Made by a program: the position numbers and the translations under genes. Of a stretch of DNA of 64,000 nucleotides, positions 8,451-60,811 are shown one piece after another. Each line of letters opens with the position of its first letter. Position 1 is the stretch's first letter. The notes beneath the pieces are model-generated. The model made no database searches. It was not told where the DNA came from and was given only the letters and a program-made list of their open reading frames with translations. Where the stretch lies: positions 265,071 to 329,070 of the forward strand of contig DATLJE010000009.1 in assembly GCA_035539095.1 (NCBI GenBank), written 5' to 3'. This stretch comes from Luteimonas sp. (lineage in GTDB: Bacteria; Pseudomonadota; Gammaproteobacteria; Xanthomonadales; Xanthomonadaceae).

Positions 8451-10016
<1,566 letters not shown>

Positions 10017-43918: not shown

Positions 43919-43941
43919 CGTTCGCGGCGGATGCACCCACC

Positions 43942-45149: not shown

Positions 45150-45244
45150 GGCGGAGGCAGGCTTGGCGGGTGCGCGCAGCGTGGCTGCCGCCGGCCGATG
45201 AATCCAATACATATAATTCAGCTTTCCATGGCCTTGGGTTATCG

Positions 45245-46156: not shown

Positions 46157-46256
46157 GGAGGCGCGCGGCGCCGGCGAGGGCCTGGCTTTCAGCACTTGGG
46201 ACGCAGCTTCGGCCGGCTTCCTCCCGGAGTTGCGTCACCTCGGTTGCCAAACGCAC

Positions 46257-46288
46257 AAAAAAACCCGGCAACTTGCGTTGCCGGGTTT
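46257..46288 (-). terminator. rho-independent terminator of the phasin gene
   Basis: Minus strand: cccggcaac-gcaa-gttgccggg followed by TTTTTTT. Confidence 0.75.
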
Positions 46289-46340
46289 CCGACGCGGGAG
46301 AGAGGCCGCGTGGCCGGTCGCCCGGCCGATGGAGCTGGAA

Positions 46341-46739: not shown

Positions 46740-46935
46740 GGTGGGCTCCTGCTGGGTGTCCGGCAGGGATTGCCGGTATTTGTGCGGTGCAGCATAGCGC
46801 CGGTTTTGTTGCAATGCAACATCCGAGCCGGGAGCCGTTCATTTATATGCGAATCAATGGGTTGGCAGATCACCAGCCCTGTTTGCGTGGGAAAACGCGT
46901 CCAGCCGGCGGCGAATCAAGATCGCCAGCCCAGGC

Positions 46936-47061
46936 GTAGGGCGGGCCTTGGCCCGCGATGTGGGTCCCCGATCCGGTCGGCCCCCTCGCCGACCGGCGCC
47001 CCGCATCGCGGAACTCGATCGGGCGAAGCCAACCTCAGGCGGCGGGCCGGGGCCGCCCTAC
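46936..47061. repeat. REP-like arms (gtagggcgggccttggcccgc ... ggcgggccggggccgccctac)
   Basis: Same family as 8379-8438 and 20959-20996. The right arm overlaps the queD stop. Confidence 0.6.
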
Positions 47062-47414
47062 GGCCCGCGGTAGCGGCAGCCGGAGGTGCAGGTCTCGCGC
47101 ACCACCACCTCGCTCAGCTGCGGCAGCGCCGGCTTCAGGCGCTCCCAGATCCACGCGGCCAGCCGCTCGCTGGTGGGGTTCTCGAGGCCTTCGATGTCGT
47201 TGAGGTAGCGGTGGTCGAGCTGGTCGTACAGCGGACGGAACGCGGCCTTGATATCGCCGAAGTCCATCACCCAGCCGCTGTCGGCGCCGGGCTCGCCGGA
47301 GACGTGCAGCTCGATGCCGAACGAATGCCCGTGCAGCCGCGCGCACTTGTGCCCGGGCGGCACGTTCGGCAGCCGGTGCGCGGCCTCGACGGTGAAGGTC
47401 TTGAAGATGTCCAT
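47058..47414 (-). CDS. queD: 6-carboxy-5,6,7,8-tetrahydropterin synthase
   Basis: [10 protein letters not shown]...CARLHGHSF...Zn/His motifs, 118 aa. Confidence 0.92.
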
Positions 47415-47420
47415 CCGCGC

Positions 47421-48251
47421 TCATTCTACCGGCTCGCGCTCGCCGGCCTTGCGCGAATGGCGGTCGGGCGGCTGCGTGCGCTGGTGCTCGGCCACCCGCG
47501 CCTTGGCGGTCTCGCCGCGCGCGCCGACCACCATCTCGGTCAGCCAGGCGACCAGCACGGCGGTGTAGGCCTTCTGCATCGACTTGTCGCTCAGCGCGTG
47601 GTCGGCGCCGGCCAGCCTGCGCGCGGTGAGCGACTGCACGCCCGTGAACGCGGCCGCGTAGCTCTCGATCACCGGCCTCGGCACGATCTCGTCGTGCTCG
47701 GCCTCCACCAGCAGCACGTCGCCGTCGAACGTGGCGCAGGCGCGCAGCGCACGGTTGTCGCGCGCGTCGATGCGCTGGCGGCGGTAGGCGCGCAGGTCGG
47801 CGTCGCGGTGCAGCTGGCGCTTGGGCACGTCCCAGCCCGGGTCCATGTACAGCGCCGGCGAGCGCAGCGCGAGCCAGCGCACCGGCCGCATCGAGGACAG
47901 GATCGCGGCGAGGTAGCCGCCGTAGCTGATGCCGACCACGGCGATCGCGCCCGGGTCGACGTCGTGGCGCGCCGCGAGCCAGTCGTAGGCGGCCAGCAGG
48001 TCGTCGAGGTTCTGCGCGCGCGTCACCGTCTCCCACTGCGCGGCGTTGGCCTCGTGGCCGCGCAGGTCGAAGGTCAGGCACAGGCAGCCCAGCGCCGCCG
48101 CCTCGCGCGCGCGTACCAGGTCGTGCCGCTGGCTGCCGCCCCAGCCGTGCACGAACAGCACCGCCGGCAATCGCCGGGTCGGCGCCAGCAGGGTGCCGCT
48201 GAGGGTGTCGCCGTCCACTGCGATGGCGACCGGATCAAGTCGGGTGTCCAT
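47421..48251 (-). CDS. alpha/beta hydrolase (dienelactone-hydrolase/S9-like)
   Basis: [10 protein letters not shown], nucleophile elbow GISYGG, and later D...H (EHDEIV, ADHAL). Confidence 0.8.
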
Positions 48252-49416
48252 GACGTTCCACGATGCTGTACTTGGTCAACAGGCCCAGGGTCGGGTCGAC
48301 GTCGCGGTAGTGCACCACCGCGTGCGCGGGTGGGTCGTGCGCGCCGTGCACTTCGTGGCTCGAGGCGCGCACGGCCTGCAACTGTGGATCGGCCGCGAAG
48401 GCCTCGAGCGCGGCGATCTCCGCCGGGCTGGCGCCGCCGATCCGCCAGGATTGCTCGAGCACGCCCGAGCGCGGCTGCCCGTCGCGATCCAGCCCCTGCA
48501 CGATGTCGTAGTTGCAGCGCGAGGCGAAGAAGCGCGGGTACGCCTCGCGCATCGCCGCGTGGTAGCACTGCGCCTGCATGGCCGCGCGCTGCAGGTGGTC
48601 GTCCAGGCCGGCCGCGCGCAACGCCTCGAAGCCGCCGCGCACGGCAAGCAGGTCGGTGCCGCCGTACGCCGCGCCGCCGTTGCGGTCGGGCGTCGTGCGC
48701 TGGGTGCCGGCATAGGTGATGCGGACGCCGGCGCATTCCACCGTGCCGATGCTGCAGGTCGTCGCGTCCGCGAGATGCTGCTCGACGGTGGCGCCGTGGC
48801 GCGCGAGCTCGTCTTCCGCGATCGTGTCCAGCGCAGCATCGAGCGCGGCGAGATCGGGCACCAGCACCTGCCCCAGCCCGCCGGTGCCGCGCGCCAGCTT
48901 GAGCCGCAACGGGCCCAGGTCGAGCAGCTGCGCGCAGGCGCGCCGCGCGTCGCGACGCGAGAACACCGCGAAGCCCGGCAGCACCGCGTCGGCCAGGCAA
49001 CCACAGAGCGAGCGCGACCAGCCGACCGGCGCCGGCGAATCCTCGTCGACCAGCGGATGGCTGACCACCTTGGTGGCGATGAAGGCATACGGCACCACGC
49101 CGCCGAACAGGTCGTCGGCACCGGCGATGCCGAGCGCGCGCGCTCGCCTCGCCAGCAGCGTCTGCTCGGGCACGAAGTAGACGCGTTCCCCGCGCCGGCG
49201 CCGCGCCGCGCCGACGCCGGCGTATTCATAGCGATGCAATCGTGCCAGCCGACGCGCCAGCGCTTCGAGCGTGGCGAACTCGTGGCCGGTGCGCGCGCGG
49301 CCGCGGGCGGCGGGGACGATCGCGACGCGTCCGGCGGCCGCGTGCCGCCGCGCGGGTGCCGCTGCCGAAGTCGCCGCGTGGACCATGCGCGCAGGATCGG
49401 CGATCGCCGCGGACAA
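48235..49416 (-). CDS. conserved hypothetical protein (recalled as DUF3182-like; ATP-grasp-like fold suspected)
   Basis: 393-aa ORF with coding-type composition. Its 3' end overlaps the hydrolase start by 17 nt. The family assignment is from memory only. Confidence 0.55.
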
Positions 49417-49623
49417 CGTCGTGAATGGTGCCCGCCGCAGGCCCGCGTATCACGCACGTGGCCGCGCATGCCCCGCCGGTGCGGATGGCGGCGCGCCCGC
49501 ACGCCGCTTCGCGAAGCGGGCCCAACTTCCGTTGCTGTCTGCGTCGCGCTGCCGCGGATGGCCGGATGCATCGCGCGCCGCCGTTGCATCCCCGGGGGGT
49601 TCCGCACGGTCAAGGACGCAGCC

Positions 49624-51447
49624 ATGAACCGGGCAGTGCTTCTGATCGGGGTCAGCCGCACGGGCGGGCTTGGGACGCTCAAGGCGGTCGAGGACTCGAT
49701 CGACAAGATGGAAGCCTGGGCGCGGTCCCAGGGCATTCCCGACGCGCAGATCATCCGGCGCACCGATGCCGGTGGGCCGGTGACGATCGCGACCTTGTTC
49801 AAGGACGTCCGCGACCTGGCCGAACCGGGCACGATCGAGCAGCTGGTGATCTATTTCGCCGGCCACGGCGTGGTCAACAACCGGACCGAGTACTGGATGC
49901 TGTCCGACGCGCCGGACAACGCCGCCGAAGCGGTCAACGTCGCCAGCAACGTCTCGCTCGCCCAGGCCGGCGCCTTCGACCATGTCGTGCTGTTCTCCGA
50001 TGCGTGCCGCACGCCGACGCAGGGGCTGCAGTACGGCCGCGTCGTCGGCAGCGACATCTTCCCCAACATCGTCGACGTCGAGCTCGAGCGCCCCGTCGAC
50101 ATCTTCTTCGGCACCTCGCTCGGCGCGCCGGCGCTGGAGGTCAGGCAGGCCGAGCAGGGCAGACAGTACCAGGCGATGTACACAGAGGCGCTGCTGGAAG
50201 CGCTCGAAGGCAAGGTCGCCGACACCATCGTCGATGGCCGCGTGCGGCCGCGGCCGTTGAAGCGGGCGCTGCCGAAGCTGGTGCGCAGGAAGCTCGACGC
50301 GAGCGGATTGACGCTGGCGACCACGCAGACGCCAGATGCACGCGTCACCTCGGACGACGACGCCTGGCTGGCGGAAATCCCGCTGCCGGCCGCCGGCGCG
50401 CATCCGCCACCGGCGGGTCACAGGCCAGGGGCGGGGACGCCACCCGCTCCACCACCCGCCGCGCCGCAACCGCCGCCGCCGCCTCCGGACGTGGCTCCGC
50501 CCCCGATGACCACGCGCGAAGTCGCGCAGCTGGTCCTGGACGAGGCGCTGCGCACCGACACCTACGATCGCGCGCCGGCCACGCGGGAAGACATCAAGGC
50601 CATTACCGGCCGCGGCGTGACGCCGAACGCGGGCCGCCTCCTCGAGGCGATGGCCACGCGTACCGCCGATCGCCTGCCGCCCGTGCTGCCCGACCGCCCC
50701 GGGTTCGAGGTCCACGGGCGCGCGCTGGCGGACGCGACCTGTCCCGACGGCGACTGCCAGCTCGGGCAGGAAGGCGACGCCACCACCGTCGGCGTCGCGA
50801 CGACGCAGCCTCAGTCGCAGGTGCTGCTCGAGTTCGACGACGGGACGGGCGTGGTGCTGCCGGTCATCGAACGCTACGTCGGCGTCCTGCGCCTGCGCGA
50901 CGGCCGCCTCGACGAGGTCTGGTACGAGCCGGCGAACGACTTCGACGCATCGATGAGCAGGAAGGAGATCGAGTTCCTGCGCCAGGCGATCATCAAGGCG
51001 TCCGCGCTCGGCGAGTTCGCGCTGCAGGGAGAGGACGCGGACATGCTCGCGCAGCGCATGCAGAACATGAAGTTCCTCGACCCCGCGCTGGCGGTGTACG
51101 CCGCGTACGCCTTCCACGACATCGGCCAGTTCCGCCGCATCGGCCACATGCAGGACTACCTGCAGGCGCAGCTCGGCGTGCGGCTGTACGACCTGGCGCT
51201 GCTCTCGCGCGGCCTGCTCCGCGACGGCGACCTGGCCGACCAGTGCACGCCGCGCCTGCCCCTGCTCTCGCAGGGCTGGGCGCTGGTCGACGCGCTGCGC
51301 GGCCGCATCCCCGGCAAGCTCGATCCGCTGCGCAGGGAGCTGCGGCCCTCGCTGTGGTCGCTGTACACGCCCGAAGGCACCGTCCTGCTGCGCGAATGGA
51401 TGCAGGAGCAGCGCCATCCCGCCATGGCCATGGGAGCCACGTCATGA
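49624..51447 (+). CDS. caspase-like (clan CD, C14-type) protease domain protein with poly-Pro linker and uncharacterised C-terminal domain
   Basis: ATG at 49624. LLIGVS..., His motif IYFAGHG, Cys motif LFSDACRT, then PPAPPPAAPQPPPPPPDVAPPP, then ~270 aa that I cannot assign. Confidence 0.75.
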   Translation: MNRAVLLIGVSRTGGLGTLKAVEDSIDKMEAWARSQGIPDAQIIRRTDAGGPVTIATLFKDVRDLAEPGTIEQLVIYFAGHGVVNNRTEYWMLSDAPDNAAEAVNVASNVSLAQAGAFDHVVLFSDACRTPTQGLQYGRVVGSDIFPNIVDVELERPVDIFFGTSLGAPALEVRQAEQGRQYQAMYTEALLEALEGKVADTIVDGRVRPRPLKRALPKLVRRKLDASGLTLATTQTPDARVTSDDDAWLAEIPLPAAGAHPPPAGHRPGAGTPPAPPPAAPQPPPPPPDVAPPPMTTREVAQLVLDEALRTDTYDRAPATREDIKAITGRGVTPNAGRLLEAMATRTADRLPPVLPDRPGFEVHGRALADATCPDGDCQLGQEGDATTVGVATTQPQSQVLLEFDDGTGVVLPVIERYVGVLRLRDGRLDEVWYEPANDFDASMSRKEIEFLRQAIIKASALGEFALQGEDADMLAQRMQNMKFLDPALAVYAAYAFHDIGQFRRIGHMQDYLQAQLGVRLYDLALLSRGLLRDGDLADQCTPRLPLLSQGWALVDALRGRIPGKLDPLRRELRPSLWSLYTPEGTVLLREWMQEQRHPAMAMGATS

Positions 51448-52331
51448 AACAGCTGATCTTCATCCACGGCCGCTCGCAGCAGGAGAAGGACGCCGTCAAG
51501 CTCAAGCAGGAATGGATCCAGGCATGGAAGAAGGGCCTGGCCAAAGGTGGCCTGCCGATGCCGATCGACGAGGCGCACATCCGCTTCCCGTACTACGGCG
51601 ACACGCTCGCCCAGATGGTCGGCGGCGCCAGCGCGGACGACGCGGCGAAGATCATCGTGCGCGGCGCGGAGCAGAACCCGGCCGCCGAGCAGTTCCTCTC
51701 CATGCTGCTGCAGCAGTACATCGACGGCGCGGGGATCACCGACGACGAGATCGAGGCGCAACTGCGCGCCGAGGCGCTCGTGCTCGAGCGCGGGCCGCAG
51801 AACTGGGGCTGGGTGCAGGCGGTGCTGCGCGCCATCGACAGGCGCACGCCCGGTGGCGGCGCGTTGATCGCGCTGGTCACCAACGACGTGCACCAGTACC
51901 TGGTCAACCTGGACCTGCGCAGGCACATCGAGGACGGCGTGCTCAAGGCCATGGACCCGGACAGCGAGAACGTGGTCGTCTCGCATTCCCTCGGCACCGT
52001 GGTCGCCTACACCGCGCTGCGCCGGCTGGCGGCGGAAGGCCAGGCGTGGCGCGTGCCGTTGCTGGTCACCCTGGGTTCGCCGCTGGGCATCCGCGCGATC
52101 CGCGGCAAGCTGCGCCCCATCGGCCACCCGGCCTGCGTGACGCGCTGGTTCAACGCCTACGATCCCAACGACGTGGTGTCGCTCAACCCGCTGGACGCAA
52201 AGAACTTCGCCATCACCCCTGCGATCGAGAACAAGGGCGACGTGGACAACGGGACGGACAACCAGCACGGCATCGTCGGCTATCTCGACGACGCGGTGGT
52301 CGCGCGAAGGATCCACGAGGCGCTTGCGTAG
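51444..52331 (+). CDS. alpha/beta hydrolase (lipase/esterase-like), function unknown
   Basis: Its ATG overlaps the upstream stop (ATGA). LIFIHGR, nucleophile elbow SHSLG, later YDPNDVV and QHG. Confidence 0.75.
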   Translation: MKQLIFIHGRSQQEKDAVKLKQEWIQAWKKGLAKGGLPMPIDEAHIRFPYYGDTLAQMVGGASADDAAKIIVRGAEQNPAAEQFLSMLLQQYIDGAGITDDEIEAQLRAEALVLERGPQNWGWVQAVLRAIDRRTPGGGALIALVTNDVHQYLVNLDLRRHIEDGVLKAMDPDSENVVVSHSLGTVVAYTALRRLAAEGQAWRVPLLVTLGSPLGIRAIRGKLRPIGHPACVTRWFNAYDPNDVVSLNPLDAKNFAITPAIENKGDVDNGTDNQHGIVGYLDDAVVARRIHEALA

Positions 52332-52462
52332 GGGTGGGCGCCGGAAACGCTGCAGGCCGTCCATGCAGGTCCTGCATCCGGTTGTGCCGCATCCGGTGCG
52401 CAGGTCCGCGCATCGTGGCGGGCCCGATGTCGGCAACCGGCTGATTGCGCTGCGGATTCTGG

Positions 52463-52480
52463 TGGCTATGGGTGGAATCG
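52463..52480. repeat. distal att repeat of the tRNA-Met island (tggctatgggtggaatcg)
   Basis: 17/18 identical to the tRNA 3' end at 60604-60621. A 10-bp partial re-duplication (ggtggctatg) lies at 52483-52492. Confidence 0.8.
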
Positions 52481-52549
52481 CGGTGGCTATGCTTCCGCCC
52501 CGTAGCGCCCTAGTCGTTTCAATGGCTTGCGGACCCGCCGGAGCCCGCA

Positions 52550-52581
52550 CTGTAGCAAACGCTGTAGCACATGCTGTAGCG
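52550..52581 (+). repeat. three CTGTAGC(A/G) units phased at 12 bp (candidate integrase arm-type sites, left arm)
   Basis: Units begin at 52550, 52562 and 52574. The same order (A, A, G) occurs at 60509-60540. Confidence 0.65.
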
Positions 52582-52856
52582 AATGGTGGGCCGCTTTCGT
52601 CCCCTCGCGGCAACGGTTCCCCCGGGGCATATTTCGCGGTGGTCCCCTCGCGGCAACCTATCGGGCCCCTTCATGGCATACCTTGGGTGTCGACCCGCTC
52701 CGGGCCGACAACGGAACCTGCCATGCGAATCTCCCTCGCTCTGGAATCCCTGCTCCCGCAGGAACGCGCCTCGCGCTTCACCGTCACCCGCGAACGCTAC
52801 GGCCGGCACGTCGCCGTGGTCGCCTTCGGTCGTCGCTTGCTGGTCGACTTGATCCG

Positions 52857-53372
52857 CTAGCGCATTCGCTCGATCACCCAAGCGCGTTGGTCCTGCGTCC
52901 ACGCTTCGGCGGGTTTGTAGTCGGCGGCGCGCTCGGGTGGTCTCTCGTGCCGGAGCTGTAGCGCGAGCTGTAGCATCGGCCGGTACTCGGTCACGAACTG
53001 GGCCGACTCCGCGCACCCTGCCGTGGCCTCTCGCTCGATCCGCTCCCACTGGTCCAGCAGCCGGGGCCGGTCGGGGCTAAGCCCTCTCAGGTCGGCGTCA
53101 TTGTCCGGGGGCGGTATCCATCCCCAGCGGGACCCGCCGCTCCGGTCCGTGTGCTTGCCCTCGACCTCAGCCGCTAGCCTCTCGATTCCCTGCGCGCAGC
53201 TCTTGAGCCGCGACCGTAGCGCATAGCGCGCTCGCTGCTCGGCCGTCTGGGGCTTCCTGCGGGCCCTGTCGCGGGCGCTGCGGTCCATCTTGGCCAGCGC
53301 CTGGGCCAGCGCCTCGGCCACCTCGGGGCAGCCTTCGGTGGCCCCTCCGGGGGCATCCCGGGGGTTTGTCAT
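52857..53372 (-). CDS. hypothetical protein (island)
   Basis: ATG at 53372 with GTGAGGA upstream, within ORF 52857..53414. No recognisable motifs. Confidence 0.55.
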   Translation of the reverse strand: MTNPRDAPGGATEGCPEVAEALAQALAKMDRSARDRARRKPQTAEQRARYALRSRLKSCAQGIERLAAEVEGKHTDRSGGSRWGWIPPPDNDADLRGLSPDRPRLLDQWERIEREATAGCAESAQFVTEYRPMLQLALQLRHERPPERAADYKPAEAWTQDQRAWVIERMR

Positions 53373-53465
53373 GGCTAAATCCTCACTGAATGAAATGTTA
53401 AATAGTGGCCTCAACCGGCCACACTAGCGCGCCTCTGTTCCGGCCGGGGCTTAACAATTCCGCGG

Positions 53466-54326
53466 CTACCATTCGCCCCTGTCGATCGCCTCAGCCAACC
53501 TCCGGTCCACCTCAGGGACCCCCGCGGCTCCTTCTTCGGGCTCCGCCTCGACGTCCGCAAGCAACCCCCGAAGTGCCACCGCGACAAGCTCCCGCGGGAG
53601 GTCCTTTGCGTACCGCGCCACCTGTCGCTGCAACTTCCCAATTCGCCAATCCTCGTACTGGCCCGGAGTCATTTCATCGCGCAGCCCGTTGCGGATCGTG
53701 TGCCGCACGTAGCGCCACTGAGGGAACCCCGAAGCGCCATCGCGGTGGTCCTTCGGGTAGCGTTCGGGGTCCACCTCAGGGAGCCGTGCAAGCATCCTCG
53801 CCACGGTGTCCCGACTAATCCCGAACTCAAGCGCGATGCTTCGCTCCGAACTCCCCGGGGGCAGCTTCAGTGATCCCCCGGCGGTGAGTCCGGCTAGGTG
53901 CTGCCACGCCTGTTCCCTGAGCTGGTCGCGGTGCATCGGCAGCTTCACCCCGTCGAGATTCACCAACCGGGAAAGCCTTCCCGCTGTCCGCCAATCCATC
54001 ACTCGAACGCGAGCCGGCAGCCGTGCGCGTCCTGCGCGTTGGTACGCCCTGAGCCGGTGGTGTCCGTCGGTGACGAATAGCTCTCCGGCGATACTCGCCA
54101 CAAGCAACGGCTCAAGCTCTGCCGCGGCACTGAGCCTCAGCACGCCGGTCATGCGCTCGATATGTTCCTCGCTCTGCGCTTCCTGCCTCGCCTGATCCCG
54201 GAGTGACAGCAGCGCCATGTTCCGCGGCTGAAGCGCGGGGTTCTGCCTGACCTCCTTTACCTCGATCTGCCGCGGTTCGGTCTCGCGCCATTCTTCAAGC
54301 CTTGCGGCTAGTGTCTTTGTCTGCAC
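53466..54326 (-). CDS. ParB/Srx-like nuclease N-terminal domain protein with HTH
   Basis: VTDGHHRLRAY (DGHHR motif of the ParB N-terminal domain) and an HTH-like SIALEFGISRDTVARML. GTG start. Confidence 0.75.
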   Translation of the reverse strand: MQTKTLAARLEEWRETEPRQIEVKEVRQNPALQPRNMALLSLRDQARQEAQSEEHIERMTGVLRLSAAAELEPLLVASIAGELFVTDGHHRLRAYQRAGRARLPARVRVMDWRTAGRLSRLVNLDGVKLPMHRDQLREQAWQHLAGLTAGGSLKLPPGSSERSIALEFGISRDTVARMLARLPEVDPERYPKDHRDGASGFPQWRYVRHTIRNGLRDEMTPGQYEDWRIGKLQRQVARYAKDLPRELVAVALRGLLADVEAEPEEGAAGVPEVDRRLAEAIDRGEW

Positions 54327-54338
54327 TGAAGGTGGCCC

Positions 54339-54518
54339 CTAGTGGTCGGAGGGTGGCGGCACCTGCGCCAGCAACTCGGCTAGCACCTCGCTGTTCGTCA
54401 TTGGCCTACCGCGCTGCGTCTCCATCTGGCGCTGGTACGCCTTGAGCTTATCGAACGCGGGCACCTCGAACGAAATGGTGCGATAGACCAACGTCTCTAC
54501 CCTGCGCTCAGCGTCCAT
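54339..54518 (-). CDS. 59-aa protein, possible ribbon-helix-helix DNA binder (below ORF-track cutoff)
   Basis: Hand-translated: MDAERRVETLVYRTISFEVPAFDKLKAYQRQMETQRGRPMTNSEVLAELLAQVPPPSDH. GGAGGAG lies 7 nt upstream. Confidence 0.55.
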   Translation of the reverse strand: MDAERRVETLVYRTISFEVPAFDKLKAYQRQMETQRGRPMTNSEVLAELLAQVPPPSDH

Positions 54519-54684
54519 CGGTGAACTCCTCCCCGCTCGCTACTCGGCGCAGCCGCTCGGCCAGCCGGCGGGCAATGATGCCTTCCAGCACGGCATTGTC
54601 TGGAGTGTCCGCGCGGTAGGGATACCATCCGTCGATTAGATGCGCGGCGGCTTCTACGCCTGCGCGTTCGTGGTCCTGAATCAT
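54508..54684 (-). CDS. 58-aa hypothetical protein (below ORF-track cutoff)
   Basis: Hand-translated: MIQDHERAGVEAAAHLIDGWYPYRADTPDNAVLEGIIARRLAERLRRVASGEEFTDGR. ATGA overlap with the HNH gene stop. Its 3' end overlaps the next start by 11 nt. Confidence 0.5.
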   Translation of the reverse strand: MIQDHERAGVEAAAHLIDGWYPYRADTPDNAVLEGIIARRLAERLRRVASGEEFTDGR

Positions 54685-55202
54685 GTTGATGCCTCTTCGA
54701 TGTAGCGGAGTACCTGGGCCACTTCGTCGTCGGTGACGCCACGCGCGGTGGTCTCGCCGTAGTCCATGCCTTCAAGTCGCGCCCTGAGCCGGTCGGGGCT
54801 GTGATCGCGCTTGATGCGGTTAGCGCGGAGGGAGATAACCTGCACGTTCCCCGGGACATAGCCCGCGGCCGGGTCGATGCGGTCAAAGCTCGGCGATGCG
54901 TCGGTGTGCTCTCCGCTGTAGTCGAGCACCAGTCCTAACACTGGGCACACCTTCGGGGCACCCCCGGGGCACGCCTCGGCGAGCGTGATCGCAAACGGGA
55001 TGCCTTCGCGCTTTGCGTCGGCCTTGCGGGTCCTGAGGTTCAACCTCAAGCGGCCTTCTGGTGTCGCTGCGGTGGCCGCATACCAACGCCGCCACTGTGC
55101 GCGCCGCTTATCCGGATTCGCTGCCTTCCATCGTCGCCGCCGCTGCCGTGCCGCCTCTTTCTGCTCTGGCGTCATCCGCGCCCATCGCTCAGCGGTCGGC
55201 AT
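54681..55202 (-). CDS. HNH-type endonuclease-like protein
   Basis: ATG at 55202. CPVLG...SFDRIDPAAGYVPGNVQVISLRANRIK resembles phage HNH nucleases. Confidence 0.65.
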   Translation of the reverse strand: MPTAERWARMTPEQKEAARQRRRRWKAANPDKRRAQWRRWYAATAATPEGRLRLNLRTRKADAKREGIPFAITLAEACPGGAPKVCPVLGLVLDYSGEHTDASPSFDRIDPAAGYVPGNVQVISLRANRIKRDHSPDRLRARLEGMDYGETTARGVTDDEVAQVLRYIEEAST

Positions 55203-55440
55203 CGCTCGCCTCCAGCGCAGCGCGCGCCTCCGCTGTGGTGGTCCGGAACAGCCCGGACAGCATCCCGGCATTGACGAAAGCCGGGAGGTCTCCGTCTCCA
55301 TCCTTCGCAGCTTCAAGAAACCGCCGCATCCGTTCCCGGCGGTCGGCCTTGGCTGCATCCGCTCCGCGCCCTACTCGGGGGAGGGTATTGTCGAAGGCGG
55401 CGGCTAGCGCGGCCTCCATTCTCTGGCGCATTACGCTCAT
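55189..55440 (-). CDS. hypothetical protein (island)
   Basis: 83-aa ORF. Its end overlaps the HNH start by 14 nt. Confidence 0.5.
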   Translation of the reverse strand: MSVMRQRMEAALAAAFDNTLPRVGRGADAAKADRRERMRRFLEAAKDGDGDLPAFVNAGMLSGLFRTTTAEARAALEASDADR

Positions 55441-55603
55441 TCTGTTTCTACCTCGATTGATTGATTGATCTGAAACAGCGAAGCCCGCCGCTTCGGCGCG
55501 TTCTCCTACTGCCCCGGGACCTTGATCCCTGAGGGTTCGGGCGCGCTTCCACGGCGGGCCTTGCTGCCGGCGGAGTGCTACCGCCTAAGGTGTTCGGCCC
55601 GGA

Positions 55604-56158
55604 TTAGCCCGCGCTGCGTCGCTGCGCCTTCATCCGCTCGGCCAGTGCGCGCGCGTCATCTTCAAGGACCAATTCCTGTGCTCGCGCTTCAACGCGGGCC
55701 TTGTGCTGGCGCTCGGCGTCCAGCTTCTCCAGCTCGGTTGGTACGTGATCGGCTCGCCACTGCGCAGCAGCCGCGACCATCTTCCGCACGCCCGGGAGCT
55801 GTACCGCCTCCTTGAAATAGAGCGCCTTCTCCCGCGTAGTGCGCGCATCGCCCTGATACCGGTAAACCGGTTCGCCCGTTTGCGCGTCATAGCGGATCAC
55901 CTCCGCCAGCTCTGCGCGCATCCGCGCCACTTCCCGCTCAAGGTCCGCGACCTGCGCCGGGTCCGCGGCGGCTGCGCTGAAGTACGGCTCAGCGCCCGGA
56001 GGCCCCAGCGTGGAACTCTTCTGGATCGCCAGCCGGCCGCCCATGAGGTAACGCTTGTCCAGCGATTCCGGGGCATTCCCGCTCCAGCGGTTGGCCTCCA
56101 GCAAGCCATCATCGAGCGCCGCCTGACTCGCGGGGCTCAGCTTTACATCTTCGTTCAT
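55604..56158 (-). CDS. hypothetical protein (island)
   Basis: ATG at 56158 (the ORF track starts at a TTG at 56182). Coiled-coil-like C-terminus. Confidence 0.55.
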   Translation of the reverse strand: MNEDVKLSPASQAALDDGLLEANRWSGNAPESLDKRYLMGGRLAIQKSSTLGPPGAEPYFSAAAADPAQVADLEREVARMRAELAEVIRYDAQTGEPVYRYQGDARTTREKALYFKEAVQLPGVRKMVAAAAQWRADHVPTELEKLDAERQHKARVEARAQELVLEDDARALAERMKAQRRSAG

Positions 56159-56244
56159 TCGTCTTTTCCGTATCGCAGGCAAAGAGAACCCATCACCGCG
56201 CGGCCTGCGCGCGCAGCGTGGGGTGGTGTTGATTGGTGGTGTCT

Positions 56245-56874
56245 CTACTCGGCCGGCGCGAACGGCACGGCCAAGCCTTCGCGGATCGTGGCCGCGGTTC
56301 TTTCTGGGCCTAGCACCTCGTCGCGGATCGCCTTCGCTGCCACCAAGGGCAACGCTCCAAGGGACTGGCGAACATGCTCTCCCAGCGCCCGCGCATGGCT
56401 GGCAGTGGTGCGGGTCTGTTCCTTCCTGCCCGAAGGCGCAACGCTCTTCACGGGTCGGGGTGCGCAGCGCAGCAGCGCCCGCCCCATATTCGTGTCGAAA
56501 ACGCGGTCGTCATTCAACGCGCGCGGAGAAAGGTCTTCTTGCAGCCAAAGCGCAATCGCCGCGGCCAGCATCGCCCGCGGGTCCGTCCCATTCCTGAGCC
56601 GGGCCATTTCCCCCGCGAGGAAGCGCGCCCCTTCCTGCTCAGACACAAGTTCCCGCAGCCAATCCACGGCGGCCACCACGGACGGGTGCCCCGCGTTCCT
56701 GTCGACCCACTCCCGGGCAATCTCCCGGTACGGCTTCAGCTCTTGCTTGCGGATGATTCTCCCGGTGGCCCCGCCGGTGGTCCGGGCGCGCTCGAAGTGG
56801 TGCTCGCAATACCGGCTCCAGCGCCGCGCCCTGCGATTGCAGCCGTCGACGCAGCAGCGTTCGTATTCGGTCAA
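56245..56874 (-). CDS. hypothetical protein with N-terminal Cys/His cluster (CCVDGC...YCEHH)
   Basis: TTG start preceded by AGAGGA. 209 aa. Confidence 0.55.
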   Translation of the reverse strand: MTEYERCCVDGCNRRARRWSRYCEHHFERARTTGGATGRIIRKQELKPYREIAREWVDRNAGHPSVVAAVDWLRELVSEQEGARFLAGEMARLRNGTDPRAMLAAAIALWLQEDLSPRALNDDRVFDTNMGRALLRCAPRPVKSVAPSGRKEQTRTTASHARALGEHVRQSLGALPLVAAKAIRDEVLGPERTAATIREGLAVPFAPAE

Positions 56875-57430
56875 GTGTGTTTCCTCTGGTCATGGTGAAG
56901 GGGCCCCCGCAGTCCACTGCGGTTGCCTCTGTCGGGGTCAAAAAAGGGAGCCCGTCGAACGCACGGGCAGCGCCCGGGAACGGGTGGTGTTCTTCTATTA
57001 GGGACGCAATCGCTTAGCCCGCTCTACGGGCCGGTTACGGCTGCCGCTTTGTTAGTACGCAACCTGACATTCGCAGGGTCCCCTCGGGTGGTCCTGAGGT
57101 GCCCTTGAGGTGCCCATGTAGTGGCCCCTTGGTGTATGGGCTCCGCCCCTTGTGCTAGTAGTCATAGTGACATTTGGTTGCCCCGCGGGGACCTGCCGCC
57201 TGAGCCCTACCCAGCGGCCCTACAGGGGCCACCTGAGCGCCCCGCCGCCGCCTCCGTCCCCGGCCCGGGGCGGCCCGAATCAGCCAGTGCCGGCGGTCTC
57301 CCGGGCTGTCTGCCGGGGCGGTCGGTCGGCTGGTCTCTATCGAGTAGTCGCCCAATCGGTTAACCCGCTCTAGGGGCCGTGGAACATTTTCGTGGAACAG
57401 CGCCATACTGGGGGCCGAACGGCCGCCCGC

Positions 57431-58108
57431 CTAAGCCTGCGCCTCCCGGGCCAGCAGCCCCCGCACGCTCGACTTGTGCCACCCCTTCCCCTGTAGCGTC
57501 CGCACGCCCCGGGCGTTCAATGCCTGCGCCAACGCGCCCAGGCTCTCCACGCCCTGCGCCCGAAGCTCCGCGACGATCGGCAGGACCTTGGCAGCGTGGG
57601 CCCCGGCCTTGGCACTGGCCGCGGCTGTAGCGGCCCCTGTGCCCTTCCCAGCCCTGCGGATCGCCTCGGCCCCGTTGGGGTTCCCCAGCTTCACCCCGCG
57701 CCGCTTAGCGGCTGCCAGCGCCTCCCGGGTGCGCCGGCTGATAGCCTCGCGTTCCCGCTGCGCCATGATCGCCATGATCCCTACCGTGGTTTCGTCCGCG
57801 TTGGGCATGTCGGCCGCGACGAACTTCACCCCGCCGTTTTGCAGCCTCAGCAGGAACTCCGCGTTGCGGCTGAGCCGGTCCAGCTTGGCAATGACCAACG
57901 TCGCCCCGGTGACGTCCGCGAGCTGTAGCGCCTTCGCCAGCTCCGGGCGGTCGTTGTCCTTCCCGCTCTCCACCTCGGTAAACGCGGCCGTGATCGTCCC
58001 CCGCACGCTCTGGGCGTACTGGTCGACCGCGTGCCGCTGCGCTTCCAACCCCAGCCCGGAGCGGCCCTGGCGGTCCGTGGAAACGCGGTAGTAGGCGACT
58101 AGCTTCAT
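57431..58108 (-). CDS. serine recombinase (resolvase/invertase family)
   Basis: MKLVAYYRVSTDRQ catalytic-Ser motif, LVIAKLDRLSRN, C-terminal HTH-like region. Confidence 0.9.
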   Translation of the reverse strand: MKLVAYYRVSTDRQGRSGLGLEAQRHAVDQYAQSVRGTITAAFTEVESGKDNDRPELAKALQLADVTGATLVIAKLDRLSRNAEFLLRLQNGGVKFVAADMPNADETTVGIMAIMAQREREAISRRTREALAAAKRRGVKLGNPNGAEAIRRAGKGTGAATAAASAKAGAHAAKVLPIVAELRAQGVESLGALAQALNARGVRTLQGKGWHKSSVRGLLAREAQA

Positions 58109-58566
58109 GGGGTGGCACTCCATCTAACGGGCGTTAGACGGATTTGTACGCCCCGGGTGCGCGCCCTGTCAAGCGGGCGGCTGCTCTGGGCCTAGGGCGT
58201 CCAGTGGGCCGGGGCGGCTGCTCTGGCCTAGTACCAGCACAACCGGCGAAGGGGTCACCGAATCCACTACGTCCTAAGGCGCGGCGCGGGCTGCCCGGGT
58301 GGCGTGTGCCGAAGCGTGCCCGGGGTGGTGTCTCTGGCTCTCTAGAGCGGAACCGGAGGGTGCCCCCGCGGTGGCATCGCCGGGTTGTCCCCGGTCCTCG
58401 CGCGGTCCTCCCTAGGTGCGCCGCGGTGGCCTGCGCGGGCCATTCGGCGGCCACCCCCTACGGGGGAAACGGGCCACGGCCGCCCGATCGAGGGGCGCTC
58501 GATGGTTTGAGCAATTTTCGGCACCTTGCGGCAGGCGCTACAGTCGCAAGCGCGAAGGGGGCACCA

Positions 58567-59109
58567 ATGCGAATCCGCCAAAAGCCGGAAGGCGTCGAAG
58601 ACTACCAACGGGGCATGAAACAGGCGCTCCGCCTACTGAAAGAGATTCCTTCGGACGCCTTCAAGTGGACCGGGGCGGTGGCCGCTATCGCGGCAATCCA
58701 TGTCGCCGACGAGCGCACCCATTCGGCATGGCTCCAATGGATGGGTTACGCCTTGTCCATCCTGTTGGTCGCTTGGATGCAATATTCCTTCTATCGTCTC
58801 GGCTTGACCAAGCACCCGGAACGGCGCGAGCGGGACGGGGCAGTAGTGATCGACTTTCGCTTGTGGAAGTTGGCCCTCGGCGCCGTCCTTTGCGTGTTGT
58901 CGTACTGGTTTGCCTTCTATCTACCGAAGGTGATTGCGGGGAGTGACTTGCTGCAAACAGTCGCCACTACACCGGCAACCGTAGCTGCCCCAGCGCCCCG
59001 GCCAGTGCCGCGAGGTCCGTCGTCTTCCCATACCGCCCAACCGGCATCGAATCCAACTCGTGCCCCAGCAGGTCCGCAATCTGGTACTCCGGCACCCCCG
59101 CATCCTTAA
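58567..59109 (+). CDS. small membrane protein (three predicted TM helices) with Pro-rich tail, island cargo
   Basis: AAGGGGG Shine-Dalgarno sequence and ATG at 58567. A/T-richer codons than the surroundings. There is no stop before 59109, so it overlaps the integrase 3' end by 143 nt. Confidence 0.5.
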   Translation: MRIRQKPEGVEDYQRGMKQALRLLKEIPSDAFKWTGAVAAIAAIHVADERTHSAWLQWMGYALSILLVAWMQYSFYRLGLTKHPERRERDGAVVIDFRLWKLALGAVLCVLSYWFAFYLPKVIAGSDLLQTVATTPATVAAPAPRPVPRGPSSSHTAQPASNPTRAPAGPQSGTPAPPHP

Positions 59110-60517
59110 GCCTGGCCGATACCGTGTGCCGGAAGCTATGCGCCGCCGTCTTCTTCGGATCGGTGACGCCTGCATCCCGCAGTCGCCGCGCTAGCAGCTT
59201 CGATAGCTTGTCCACTGCGCCGCGCTTCGGGTTGTCGGTGGTGCGCCACTGCGCATCGAACAGGTGGCCCGCAGGTGCGCCCTCAGTCCACTTCAACAGC
59301 CCCAGCTCGACCAACCGCGGATGCACGGGCACAAGCCGGCGGCTCCCCGGGGTCTTGAGCTGCTTCCCTTCGGTGTCGTCGTTCACGTCGATGACCCAAG
59401 CCTCTCCCTCGCGGCGAATGTCCGCCGTCGTGAGCTGCGCCGCTTCGCCAAGCCGCAGCCCTGAGTACGCCATGATCCGGGGAAGCCAACGCAATTCTGG
59501 CCGCTTCGGCTCTTGGTCGAGCTTGGCAAAGTAGGTGCGCAAGTCGTCGTCGGTGAAGGGCCGCCGGTCATCGCGTGCGCGTCGTTCCTTCACGTCTCGC
59601 AACACTTCGGCGGGATTCTTCGGAATCGTGTCATGCTCGGTCGCCCACGCGAACAGCGAGCGCGTTAGCTGTTGGTACTTGTTGACGCTGCGCGGTTCCA
59701 GCCGGGGAACGCTCGGGTCCCCTTCGGTGGCCTTCAGGACCTCCCGCGGTGTCTTCCCCGGGAACTTCTTCCCCATGTTCGCCGGTAGCTGCGTGATCGC
59801 GTGGCCTAGCTGGCGCATGTCTTCCTTCGTGACGTCGCCAATCTGCGGATCGCCCAGCAGCTCCGCGACGGTTTGCAGAATGGTCCGGTGGAGGTGTTCT
59901 GTCTTCGGTGACCATTTCCGCAGCGAAACGCGCTCGTCTCCGTAGAGCCGCGCCACCTCCGAAACCCGCGGGGTTTCCTTCGGTGCCTCCGCAGTGGCCC
60001 CGCGGTGTTCCGTGGGCCTGCGCAGCGGATTGCCGGCAAGCGCCTTTAGCTCTGCCGTCACGGCTTCAAGCTTCGCCTCAATCAAGCGGCGGGCCAGCTT
60101 GCGGCGGGTGGTGTCTTCGCCTTCGAGTAGCAGCGTGCGCGCCAGCTCCGCGAACTCGCCTAGCTCGGCATTAGCGAGTAGGCCGCTCAGCCGGTGCGCT
60201 TCGTCGTTCAAGTCGAAGCGGTGCGCGTCCAGCCCGGGGCCTTCCCACTCAAGGGCTAGCCGGTCTTCGATCTCGTCGAAGCTCGCCGCAAGGTAGCGGC
60301 GGGTGATCTGGTCTAGCTGGTCGGCGGTCATTGGCCGGCGTCGCACCCCTGCGAACAATGTCCCGAGGTGAGTCTCCCACAACGCCAAGCGGCGGGCCGC
60401 CTCGCGGGGGTCCGCGGTGGATAGGGAGCGGGTGATTTCGGATCGGCCCAAGGTGTCCCGAAGGTCGGCCGGGACTGCGATCCGCGAAGCGTAGGAACTG
60501 CCGCGTCTCTGTAGCAT
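58967..60517 (-). CDS. tyrosine recombinase / phage-type integrase
   Basis: C-terminal catalytic region HSFRHTVSARL...LLGHE...GRYGK. Adjacent to the tRNA. ATG at 60517 is preferred over the TTG at 60586. Confidence 0.9.
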   Translation of the reverse strand: MLQRRGSSYASRIAVPADLRDTLGRSEITRSLSTADPREAARRLALWETHLGTLFAGVRRRPMTADQLDQITRRYLAASFDEIEDRLALEWEGPGLDAHRFDLNDEAHRLSGLLANAELGEFAELARTLLLEGEDTTRRKLARRLIEAKLEAVTAELKALAGNPLRRPTEHRGATAEAPKETPRVSEVARLYGDERVSLRKWSPKTEHLHRTILQTVAELLGDPQIGDVTKEDMRQLGHAITQLPANMGKKFPGKTPREVLKATEGDPSVPRLEPRSVNKYQQLTRSLFAWATEHDTIPKNPAEVLRDVKERRARDDRRPFTDDDLRTYFAKLDQEPKRPELRWLPRIMAYSGLRLGEAAQLTTADIRREGEAWVIDVNDDTEGKQLKTPGSRRLVPVHPRLVELGLLKWTEGAPAGHLFDAQWRTTDNPKRGAVDKLSKLLARRLRDAGVTDPKKTAAHSFRHTVSARLKDAGVPEYQIADLLGHELDSMPVGRYGKTTDLAALAGALGQLRLPV

Positions 60518-60540
60518 GGTCTGTAGCACTCCCTGTAGCG
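60509..60540 (+). repeat. three CTGTAGC(A/G) units phased at 12 bp (candidate arm-type sites, integrase-proximal)
   Basis: Units begin at 60509, 60521 and 60533. They overlap the integrase start region. Confidence 0.65.
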
Positions 60541-60603
60541 CGGGGGCTAGGACCACTGAAGCGACGTGTTCGCCCTGCGTGTTCAAGGGCTTGCAGAATG
60601 GTA

Positions 60604-60677
60604 TGGCTATGGGTGGACTCGAACCACCGACCCCAGCATTATGAGTGCTGTGCTCTAACCGGCTGAGCTACATAGCC
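60604..60677 (-). tRNA. tRNA-Met (CAT), elongator type
   Basis: The minus strand reads GGCTATGTAGCTCAGCCGGTTAGAGCACAGCACTCATAATGCTGGGGTCGGTGGTTCGAGTCCACCCATAGCCA. Cloverleaf fold, G1-C72 pair, close to E. coli elongator tRNA-Met. Confidence 0.9.
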
Positions 60678-60811
60678 AAGGGGCGCTTCCCGCGCAGGGA
60701 AGCCGCGAATTATTCCCGGATCGGGCCCCCGCCGTCAATTCACGCCCCGGTCGCTTGTCGGCCCGGCGCCGCCGTGGCAGAGTCGATGGCAGTGAATTCG
60801 GAGTCCGCATC

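Follow-up and report, generated by a model that had tools for sequence, protein, structure and literature searches.

What kind of element occupies the DNA beside the tRNA-Met gene of Luteimonas, and do its genes without assigned function represent cargo or the machinery of the element itself? Small integrase islands without transfer genes are common, and their movement and the roles of their conserved genes are mostly not understood. In the 64-kb stretch of Luteimonas DNA analyzed here (the window), an initial annotation had proposed a compact islet with two recombinases, either satellite-like or mobilizable or else decayed. We confirmed that positions 52463–60617 of the window constitute an 8.1-kb site-specific integrative element in the Luteimonas genome. 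This element probably belongs to a so far undescribed family of mini-islands with a conserved backbone and with movement that would depend on a helper. Its features are collected in Table 1.

Table 1. Features of the Luteimonas island and its target site (positions in the window).
Feature	Position	Strand	Remarks
Distal att copy, attL-type junction	52463–52480	plus	14-bp crossover core at 52463–52476
Distal triple CTGTAGC[A/G] repeat	52550–52581	plus	12-bp spacing; 74 bp inside distal core; putative arm-type sites
orf171, backbone protein	52857–53372	minus	homologues in L090 (47% identity) and L159
ParB286, ParB/KorB/Noc-type	53466–54326	minus	N-terminal ParB/Srx-fold domain, central HTH, C-terminal helical region (predicted)
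orf59, small conserved protein	54339–54518	minus	directly upstream of ParB286
orf58, tiny ORF	54508–54684	minus	unique to Luteimonas copy
HNH173, putative endonuclease-VII/HNH-superfamily protein	54681–55202	minus	unique to Luteimonas copy; absent from sister islands
orf83b, small protein	55189–55440	minus	one HMM match, in L090
orf184, backbone protein	55604–56158	minus	conserved DP(R/K)TGEP motif, helical C-terminus
orf209, backbone protein (CCCH)	56245–56874	minus	invariant C-x4-C-x10-C-x2-H motif
Non-coding spacer	56875–57430	minus	53-nt direct repeat and terminator-like hairpin
ser225, small serine recombinase (resolvase/invertase type)	57431–58108	minus	alternative start 58123
mem180, small membrane protein	58567–59109	plus	tail overlaps int 3' end
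int516, tyrosine integrase	58967–60517	minus	N-terminal DUF6538 and Phage_integrase (1.9e-14)
Proximal triple CTGTAGC[A/G] repeat	60509–60540	plus	12-bp spacing; 65 bp inside proximal core; overlaps int start codon; putative arm-type sites
tRNA-Met(CAT)	60603–60678	minus	3' end 60604–60617 is the proximal att core; CCA no longer encoded

Boundaries of the island and its entry at tRNA-Met

The repeat of the tRNA-Met 3' end that had drawn attention to the locus was borne out: TGGCTATGGGTGGAATCG at 52463–52480 agreed with positions 60604–60621 at 17 of 18 bases. When up to three mismatches were allowed, this att repeat matched twice in the 64 kb, both times at the att copies themselves, versus 0.01 matches expected. 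Comparison with four relatives resolved the junctions at base level and delimited a crossover core of 14 bp, TGGCTATGGGTGGA, showing that the island entered by recombination within this core at the tRNA-Met 3' end. As read from the two junctions, the tRNA-Met gene is now completed by element DNA, and its native 3' end has been displaced to the opposite junction, 8.1 kb away, where the native CCA (TGG) is retained just beyond the distal core (52460–52462).

Base composition changed at the same positions. The third-position GC content (GC3) of the island genes was 0.68–0.85 (0.90 in the serine recombinase), as against 0.90–0.97 in the left flank and 0.82–0.93 in the right flank, in line with the reduced third-position GC described initially; the step coincided exactly with both island junctions (overall GC, 66.5% in the island versus about 71%). 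Genes called independently on a Logan contig of identical sequence matched the gene list of the island, and the tight overlaps reported for the minus-strand train were verified base by base (orf83b/HNH173, 14 nt; HNH173/orf58, ATGA; orf58/orf59, 11 nt).

In the comparison with relatives for an empty tRNA-Met site, the queD gene lay less than 700 bp from the tRNA gene in 15 of 67 assessable related Lysobacteraceae loci, versus 13.2 kb in Luteimonas, but the exact LF295–tRNA empty junction was seen in none of the relatives compared. The segment deviating from the relatives spans 13.2 kb (47415–60603), thus including an additional 5 kb outside the 8.1-kb element. Among 80 NUDIX-anchored loci searched by tblastn (E ≤ 1e-5), an island-protein homologue was detected only in L078, which carries a different island. 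The identical Logan contig passed through the distal junction unbranched, so that no empty-site reads were evident in that sample. The repeat, the intact recombinase, the absence in relatives, and the deviant composition by which a tRNA-integrated tyrosine-integrase island is recognized were thus all found at this locus.

Integrase, serine recombinase, and putative arm-type sites

The integrase int516 starts 85 bp from the tRNA-Met 3' end, consistent with its initial description as adjoining the tRNA gene, and it has the R, HxxR, H, and Y residues required for catalysis. Its N-terminal domain belongs to DUF6538, for which no function is described and which was not mentioned in the full-text literature searched. 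The triple CTGTAGC pattern with 12-bp spacing matched exactly twice in the 64-kb window, versus 0.00 matches expected, and these repeats may be arm-type sites for the integrase N-terminal domain. The CTGTAGC motif was also present inside both ends of the L078 island, though the L078 integrase is only 47% identical, and the island of L002 contained comparable tandem GTTAGGGGA repeats inside both ends. The arrangement resembles lambda-type integrases with arm-type sites in that tandem short repeats are placed inward of each att junction, at a distance of 65–74 bp, and in that the N-terminal domain of the integrase is a separate one. It differs in that this domain is DUF6538, that all six repeats share one orientation, and that the proximal set overlaps the start codon of int, because of which autoregulation of int through the repeats is possible.

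The second recombinase, ser225, matched Resolvase (2e-26), HTH_62 at its C-terminus (2.8e-5), and the DNA invertase family phrog_125 (1e-32), contained a YYRVSTDRQ motif with the nucleophilic Ser10, and was 68% identical to the L078 copy. No convincing res or inversion sites were found for ser225, and no meaningful alignment was obtained between the upstream sequences in the window and in L078. As a resolvase, ser225 would resolve multimers of the excised circle.

A backbone shared among mini-islands

The ParB-like protein, orf59, orf209, orf184, orf171, the resolvase, and the membrane protein recurred together in other islands of ~7–9 kb at other tRNAs, and are therefore backbone rather than cargo. 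The backbone genes and their order were common to L002, L090, L091, L093, L156, L167, and L187; the same compact set was found in the same order in at least six other loci differing in host and insertion site. Independent islands, such as those of L002 (tRNA-His), L090, L091, and L078, each have att repeats and arm-type repeats of their own. By homology and gene order, ser225, orf209, orf184, the orf59–ParB286 pair, orf171, and mem180 are shown to form a conserved family backbone, and the Luteimonas island belongs to a small family of probably non-autonomous mini-islands that has apparently been described nowhere so far.

ParB286 had been labeled ParB-nuclease-like. Its relation to ParB held, and structural prediction refined the assignment: the AF2 model (pLDDT 89.1) matched ParB, Noc, and KorB structures in Foldseek with E-values of 3e-7 to 1e-4, including 7BM8, 7NG0, 6SDK, and 8QA9 at E about 1e-6 over 235–250 aligned columns. 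ParB286 is accordingly modeled as a two-domain ParB/KorB/Noc-type protein, whose C-terminal helical region ends in an acidic-aromatic tail. Its DGHHRLRA sequence aligned with the GERRxR nucleotide-binding motif, and D87, G88, H90, and R91 were invariant in the ParB286 family. The small protein orf59 accompanied ParB in 35 of the 57 loci that were 5 kb or longer and contained a motif conserved in its family; a PDB sequence search returned no match, but with its strand-helix-helix pattern orf59 may be a ribbon-helix-helix protein. Together, orf59 and ParB286 may act as a DNA-binding switch for regulation or maintenance, comparable with KorB on plasmid RK2. ParB286 shares the ParB N-domain, the HTH, and the fold with the CTP-dependent clamps KorB, ParB, and Noc (RK2 KorB–KorA, 8QA9; ParB, 6T1F; Noc, 7NFU), and, as in the KorB–KorA pair, it is encoded beside a small and putatively DNA-binding partner. 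In contrast to these clamps, it has DGHHR in place of GERRxR and resides in an island in which Pfam and NCBIfam revealed no ParA-like gene; its partner looks ribbon-helix-helix-like, unlike RK2 KorA. A search for parS-like sites in the island intergenic regions yielded only short weak palindromes.

The other backbone proteins were less readily assigned. The orf209 family is large and unannotated (867 cluster representatives at 50% identity), and the orf209 model matched no replication protein. Homologues of orf184 were found in L002, L090, L091, L165, L166, and L167, with no family or PDB match (Pfam, PHROGs, PADLOC, NCBIfam, and PDB), and orf171 likewise had no family match (Pfam, PHROGs, NCBIfam, and PADLOC). 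Neither these three proteins nor ParB286 had homologues among 50,697 phage records. mem180 showed a coding signal at 58600–58900 and one predicted TM segment, and shared 28% identity with its homologue in L091. In the spacer, the copies of the direct repeat lie at 56981–57033 and 57327–57379 and the hairpin at 56968–56950; an RNA structure signal was absent (z = 0.5), and no Rfam match was found. An open reading frame in this region, orf83a (57155–57406), was rejected as a gene, its coding signal being absent. One of the proteins without assigned function could be an unrecognized replicase or relaxase, which counts against a helper-dependent reading of the element.

Only about 0.7 kb, consisting of HNH173 and orf58, was unique to the Luteimonas copy. 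The HNH-like character ascribed to HNH173 was supported only by PHROGs (phrog_3322, 6.6e-27; phrog_1035, 6.7e-14), not by Pfam, in which no HNH match was obtained; the protein has phage homologues that are 40–50% identical and reads DRID at the typical DHID. HNH173 and orf58 may represent a secondary, selfish insertion, and a role of HNH173 in assisting packaging is a guess.

Class of the element and its mobility

Searches of Pfam, PHROGs, and NCBIfam returned no matches to capsid, terminase, primase, replication, packaging, or transfer/conjugation families, in agreement with the gene inventory first drawn up. No island protein matched a relaxase family (Pfam and NCBIfam) or a satellite packaging or hijack marker (TerS, Sid/Psu, Ppi/Rpp, or capsid; Pfam and PHROGs). 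Because no replicase, packaging, or conjugation gene is recognizable, movement between cells would rely on a helper phage or conjugative element; no helper was identified for the Luteimonas island. Also counting against this reading are the missing excisionase, the failure to find circular contigs among the family loci, the unbranched Logan contig, and the lack of phage-record homologues of orf209, orf184, orf171, and ParB286. Since the island is compact, was integrated site-specifically, and has two recombinases but no recognizable replication, packaging, or transfer genes, the satellite-like or mobilizable class proposed initially is the most reasonable one, and the island is most likely a helper-dependent mini-element of putative mobility.

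The best-surviving alternative is an integrative, plasmid-like episome, the excised circle of which would replicate via an unrecognized initiator (orf209 or orf184) and would be stably maintained through the ParB-like protein together with the resolvase; no helper would then be needed for persistence. A ParB/KorB-type protein and a resolvase are a classical plasmid maintenance pair, orf209 represents a large family with a zinc-binding motif and no assigned function, and some virion-packaged mini-elements have plasmid-like Rep/Par genes (PMC9618062). We nonetheless consider an episome unlikely: the ParA partner and any Rep family match (Pfam, PHROGs, and NCBIfam) are missing, the orf209 model resembles no replication protein, circular contigs were absent among about 90 family loci, and all family members on long contigs were integrated in the chromosome.

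Decay, the second option of the initial annotation, is less likely still. On this reading, a prophage or conjugative element of larger size would have been reduced to the integrase and a few early genes. Consistent with it are the occurrence of the orf59–ParB module in larger elements (a primase and helicases accompany it in L007 and inovirus genes in L092, and in L093 it lies beside a terminase) and the lack of an excisionase, as no island protein matched Phage_AlpA or HTH_17, whereas such an excisionase was present in 40 other loci with this ParB family. However, independent islands with att and arm-type repeats of their own show the same compact set of genes in the same order, and in the Luteimonas copy the two att ends and the two sets of arm repeats are preserved intact, the ORFs are all intact and tightly overlapping, and the recombinase catalytic residues are present.

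Relation to known mobile elements

Among the closest known systems are VEIMEs, marine virion-encapsidated integrative mobile elements, some subgroups of which combine a tyrosine integrase with a serine recombinase and some of which have HNH genes (Eppley et al., 2022; PMC9618062). Like VEIMEs and phage satellites (PICI, cfPICI, P4-like, and PLE), the Luteimonas element is small and integrative and has no structural genes, and defense genes occur in many satellites as they do in the sister island L078. Unlike satellites, it lacks AlpA, primase-replicase, TerS, and capsid-redirecting genes; it further differs from satellites and VEIMEs in that phage records contained no relatives of orf209, orf184, orf171, or ParB286. 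Phage-transduced integrase-only islands (I55-type tmRNA islands and VPI-1) are 20–70 kb in size, are located at tmRNA, and share alpA, RadC, YqaJ, and Gp2-like genes (Zhao et al., 2025; PMC12595487). The Luteimonas island resembles them in its tyrosine integrase, short target-RNA-derived repeats, lack of autonomous-transfer genes, and defense cargo within its family, but is 8 kb in size, is located at tRNA-Met, and has another backbone. IMEs (integrative and mobilizable elements), such as SGI1 and MGI-type islands, bring an integration module of their own, in some cases along with a resolvase, and use the transfer machinery of a helper. The Luteimonas island has an integration module and a resolvase of its own and would share the helper dependence; it differs in that no relaxase, mobilization protein, or recognizable oriT was found in it, the recognition of an oriT requiring a known helper.

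A broader proposal is put forward tentatively, and we regard it as possible rather than probable. The triad of DUF6538 integrase, serine recombinase, and orf209, often with the orf59 and ParB/KorB-like pair, might define a class of minimal hitch-hiking elements that is widespread in Proteobacteria but so far undescribed. Such elements would occupy various tRNA sites, exchange cargo (retrons and restriction enzymes, for example), be switched on and off by a ParB-type clamp and its small partner, and exploit helpers by new machinery consisting of orf209, orf184, and orf171.

Defense genes and biological implications

Known defense genes are present in the sister island L078, which occupies the same tRNA-Met: PADLOC identified a type VI retron (RT_VI, 7e-69; HTH_VI, 1.7e-34) and a type IV restriction enzyme (mREase_IV, 1e-19). 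The Luteimonas copy has no comparable cargo, and PADLOC 2.0 gave zero matches for the ten island proteins scanned, that is, all except the integrase. Some defense systems include HNH and ParB-fold proteins, and the Eleftheria and L184/L187 relatives have large proteins without assigned function beside orf209. That the functionally unassigned genes are themselves a new anti-phage or exclusion system is nevertheless improbable, because they are conserved and syntenic across islands while the recognized defense genes vary between islands, and because so little of the Luteimonas copy is unique to it. The initial view of these genes as cargo, and as the best place in the window to look for anti-phage functions, accordingly found no support.

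As a mini-island with base-level junctions, putative integrase arm sites, and a backbone common to several genera, the Luteimonas locus is a cleanly bounded 8.1-kb example of its kind. This backbone features the large unannotated orf209 family and a distinctive, predicted ParB/KorB-like clamp with a small partner, and the genes without assigned function are candidates for roles in maintaining the element or exploiting a helper rather than for new defense systems. L078 shows that the island platform can carry defense genes; since it does so at the same tRNA, with a retron and a restriction enzyme, this island family may be a vehicle that moves defense systems among Lysobacteraceae and beyond.

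Integration at tRNA-Met

The single tRNA gene found by ARAGORN in the 64-kb window was tRNA-Met(CAT), and 17 of 18 bases at its 3' end were repeated at the distal end of the island. When up to three mismatches were allowed, this 18-mer had only two matches in 64 kb, against 0.01 expected by chance. The G+C content was 66.5% between the repeats and approximately 71% outside, and the third-position GC content (GC3) of the island genes was 0.68–0.85, except for the serine recombinase ser225 (0.90), compared with 0.90–0.97 for the five genes left of the island and 0.92 for the NUDIX gene on the right flank. This GC3 step coincided exactly with both repeat copies.

In four relatives, the site reads ...TGG-TGGCTATGGGTGGA-CTCGAACC..., which is a tRNA with CCA encoded. 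The distal copy (...cTGG-TGGCTATGGGTGGA-Atcgcgg) diverged from these relatives after 14 bases and kept the native CCA on its outer side, and in the proximal copy (...gaatggTA-TGGCTATGGGTGGA-CTCGAACC) the divergent part lay towards the island interior and the native tRNA body away from it. This layout is the expected result of an integrase-mediated crossover within a 14-bp core, and the junctions indicate that the new tRNA 3' end is supplied by the element, with the displaced native end at the far junction. The predicted attP of the excised island would be ...GCAGAATGGTA-TGGCTATGGGTGGA-ATCGCGGTGGC..., and the predicted attB of the emptied site ...GGATTCTGG-TGGCTATGGGTGGA-CTCGAACC....

Since integration, the tRNA-Met gene has lacked an encoded CCA (GCCA-TACCA, compared with GCCACCA in relatives), and the tRNA must therefore depend on 3' processing and CCA addition. 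Separately, in four other loci, the interval from the tRNA to the NUDIX gene contained partial duplicates of the tRNA-Met 5' half, which may be scars of other integrations.

A triple CTGTAGC pattern was present inside each core in the same orientation; it occurred exactly twice in the window, with 0.00 expected, and the proximal set overlapped the integrase start codon. The identical motif and spacing were found inside both ends of L078, a sister island that also occupies this tRNA-Met, though its integrase was only 47% identical. Another tandem repeat, GTTAGGGGA, was found inside both ends of the tRNA-His island L002, whose DUF6538 integrase was 25% identical. We infer that the CTGTAGC repeats are arm-type sites read by the N-terminal DUF6538 domain of the integrase; our literature search found no paper on DUF6538.

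Features of the window and of compared loci (coordinates are those of the sequence named)
Feature	Sequence	Position	Details
Extent of identical Logan contig L001	Window	42442–60633	18,192 bases, 100% identity
Additional block	Window	47415–52462	alpha/beta hydrolase; DUF3182; 607-aa protein; 295-aa uncharacterised protein, overlapping the 607-aa gene
Distal repeat	Window	52463–52480	
Distal putative arm-type sites	Window	52550–52581	CTGTAGC[A/G] x3, 12-bp spacing; 74 bp inside distal core
ser225 with its flanking spacers	Window	56875–58566	spacers ~440 and ~480 nt, non-coding
Direct repeat	Window	56981–57033; 57327–57379	53 nt, 74% identity; spacer downstream of ser225
Rejected orf83a	Window	57155–57406	
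Membrane protein mem180	Window	58567–59109	plus strand
Proximal putative arm-type sites	Window	60509–60540	CTGTAGC[A/G] x3, 12-bp spacing; 65 bp inside proximal core
Integrase start codon	Window	60517	ATG
tRNA-Met(CAT)	Window	60603–60678	minus strand
tRNA 3' end without encoded CCA	Window	60603–60621	
Proximal repeat	Window	60604–60621	
Partial tRNA-Met duplicates	L013, L026, L042, L062	near 9820–9920	26–50 nt
Sister island	L078	896–9796	Arenimonas MAG; 8.9 kb; att repeat 25 bp
Inovirus-like contig	L092 (IMG/VR UViG_3300011701_000025)	1–8888	8.9 kb
Block beside phage genes	L093	500–9400	
Duplicated module	L123	1–12304	18-kb metagenomic contig

Variability of the site

We fetched 80 Lysobacteraceae loci via the adjacent NUDIX gene. 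The tRNA-Met beside this gene was kept in most of them, and a related island was found at it in L078 only. The queD gene was located <700 bp from the tRNA 3' end in 15 of the 67 assessable loci and 1.1–5.2 kb from it in four more, as against 13.2 kb in the window. The site is thus variable, as the initial annotation required.

The difference between the window and its relatives exceeded the island, in that an extra block of approximately 5 kb lay between queD and the island. Its interpretation as a tandem island was rejected, since no third att copy was found at ≤3 mismatches and its GC3 was host-like; we therefore treated it as probable lineage-specific DNA outside the element. Because of this block, none of the 80 loci shows the exact empty junction of the island, and the empty-site comparison accordingly established the variability of the site and, against four relatives, the 14-bp core, but not an exact empty junction. 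The 607-aa protein of the block showed weak similarity to caspases (Peptidase_C14), and it might form a two-gene system with the 295-aa protein.

Gene content

The gene calls of L001, an independent contig, matched those of the window (171, 286, 59, 58, 173, 83, 184, 209, 225, and 516 aa). The gene overlaps of 14 nt, ATGA, and 11 nt were real, so that this feature of the initial annotation was confirmed together with the tRNA-Met repeat and the lower-GC3 interior. The membrane protein ORF had coding signal, and a single transmembrane segment was predicted in its product; orf83a was rejected as a gene, having no codon-position coding signal.

The integrase contained DUF6538 and Phage_integrase domains with the catalytic residues present, and ser225 contained a Resolvase domain and a C-terminal HTH, with a DNA invertase as its top PHROG. 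HNH173 matched phrog_3322 ('endonuclease'; 6.6e-27) with no Pfam HNH match and had DRID in place of the usual DHID; its relatives (40–50% identity) occurred sporadically in phages of Caulobacter, Ralstonia, Streptomyces, and Xanthomonas. The conserved strand-helix-helix pattern of orf59 suggests that it is likely a ribbon-helix-helix protein. No family match was found for orf209, orf184, orf171, orf83b, and orf58 in Pfam, PHROGs, and NCBIfam, or for the membrane protein in Pfam and PHROGs, and comparison of orf184, orf171, and orf59 with PDB sequences gave nothing significant. ParB286, orf209, orf184, and orf171 had no phage homologue in 50,697 records, and as single proteins none of them was found on IMG/VR contigs.

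The GC3 of ser225 was host-like, unlike that of the remaining island, and its gene was flanked by non-coding spacers, of which the downstream one contained a direct repeat and a terminator-like hairpin. Either a swapped module or the presence of binding sites may explain these features. A structured RNA in the 480-nt downstream spacer was rejected (z = 0.5; no Rfam match), and no resolvase site shared with L078 was recognised, as the upstream regions failed to align.

Family backbone and the orf209 family

The gene train was also found in islands at other sites. A compact subfamily of the ParB286 loci had orf209 in common, and orf184, orf171, the resolvase, the DUF6538 integrase, and the membrane protein occurred in varying combinations. 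L002, L003, and L004 were three assemblies of a single island, 7.6 kb long, which is located at tRNA-His and has an att repeat of its own; a cultured strain (GCA_017796745.1) is a carrier of the L002 island. The contigs L090 (6.5 kb) and L091 (8 kb) encoded the resolvase, orf209, (a small ORF), orf184, orf59, ParB, and orf171, followed by the integrase on the opposite strand; L093, L156, and L167 were further members. Compared with these islands, the integrase module of the window is inverted and placed across the att site, suggesting that integrase modules are exchanged. HNH173 and orf58 were found in the window only among the family loci. The pair formed by the resolvase and orf209 also occurred in L187 and on a replicon of Eleftheria terrae (Betaproteobacteria), there accompanied by an integrase; large uncharacterised proteins lay nearby in both cases.

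An exhaustive profile search showed that the orf209 family comprised 867 clusters of approximately 200–250 aa with an invariant C-x4-C-x10-C-x2-H motif. The family was absent from Pfam (76 members) and from PDB sequences in single-sequence and profile searches, and the AF2 structure (pLDDT 69.6) had a top Foldseek E-value of 0.75. Regarding its wider context, the alignments diverged too far to support pattern scans, and a word-indexed search gave two hits only. These comparisons indicate that the uncharacterised island genes are mostly backbone conserved across the mini-island family, not cargo. Their proposed role as a reservoir of new defence functions was not borne out, as they recur in sister islands and PADLOC gave zero matches for the ten island proteins other than the integrase.

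ParB286 and its module

ParB286 had only sub-threshold Pfam matches. Its AF2 model (pLDDT 89.1; 26-sequence alignment) matched Caulobacter and Bacillus ParB, Noc, and RK2 KorB with E-values of 3e-7 to 1e-4 over approximately 240 columns, covering the HTH as well as the N-terminal domain, and its family-invariant DGHHR aligned with GERRxR of ParB. The model thus identifies ParB286 as a ParB/KorB/Noc-type DNA-binding protein; of the earlier label 'ParB-nuclease-like', the ParB fold held, whereas the protein is not simply a nuclease. In nearly all family members, the C-terminus consisted of an acidic stretch and then an aromatic residue (…D-F, …D-Y, …GEW), which resembles a partner-docking tail.

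The ParB286 family was small, with 26 hits in a word-indexed search and approximately 90 loci from pattern scans. Co-occurrence was assessed by iterative HMM searches over all ORFs of these loci and counted in the 57 loci that were 5 kb or longer: orf59 was located beside ParB in 35 and a tyrosine integrase 1.5–4 kb upstream in 37. An AlpA-type gene followed the module in 40 loci, and a conserved protein of approximately 135 aa preceded it in 27. The machinery downstream differed between loci. It consisted of a DUF5906 primase and helicases in L007, and L092 encoded a tyrosine integrase, ParB, AlpA, the inovirus genes DUF2523 and Zot, and TraX, and it resembles a filamentous-phage-like element that carries an integrase. 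In L093, a block of resolvase, orf209-like, ParB-like, and integrase genes immediately adjoined a Toprim/AAA_25 primase-helicase and a gpA-type large terminase; the arrangement represents either a prophage with a tandem islet or a phage bearing the module. This variety marks the module as promiscuous among integrative elements, with an early or regulatory function; a KorB-like regulatory or maintenance role fits it better than a cargo role. One contig, L123, carried the integrase-orf59-ParB module twice, in inverted orientation.

Defence genes in the sister island

The L078 island (GC content of 59.9%, compared with 70.6% in the flank) and the window had the integrase type, arm motif, att site, and resolvase (68% identity) in common; the L078 island contained a weak orf209 relative and was without ParB. 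It encoded a type VI retron (RT_VI, 7e-69; HTH_VI, 1.7e-34) and an SRA-HNH type IV methyl-directed restriction enzyme (1e-19), showing that the platform is able to carry defence genes, and PADLOC recognised none in the window copy. A 575-aa uncharacterised protein overlapped the start of the orf209-like gene of L078.

Mobility and class of the element

Integration at the 14-bp core in tRNA-Met and a backbone common to the mini-island family are established. We regard the island as almost certainly an integrated mobile element and very probably a member of a conserved mini-element family. No genes for replication, packaging, or transfer were recognised in it. In the mechanism that we propose, the integrase would use the arm sites, orf59 and ParB would form a DNA-binding switch, the resolvase would resolve multimers, and a helper would carry the element between cells. 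Marine virion-packaged mini-elements, some of which bear a tyrosine integrase and a serine recombinase (PMC9618062), and integrase-only islands transduced by jumbo phages (PMC12595487) are precedents for such helper-dependent movement. Against it stand the lack of any direct excision sign, the absence of a detectable excisionase in the window copy, and a backbone without relatives in phage records; helper-dependent transfer is favoured only slightly.

No circular contigs were found among the family loci. L001 extended exactly 30 nt (k-1, k = 31) beyond the inner edge of the proximal att core and stopped, the signal of a graph branch. Reads from an empty site could give such a signal, but L001 had no branch at the distal junction, which makes a second identical tRNA-Met gene the likelier source.

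The initial interpretation as a satellite-like, mobilisable, or decayed island is partly supported: the element is real, compact, and probably non-autonomous, but its uncharacterised genes are backbone instead of a defence reservoir. The main interest of the island lies in the cleanly defined backbone of its family and in the orf209 family, which is large and unannotated.
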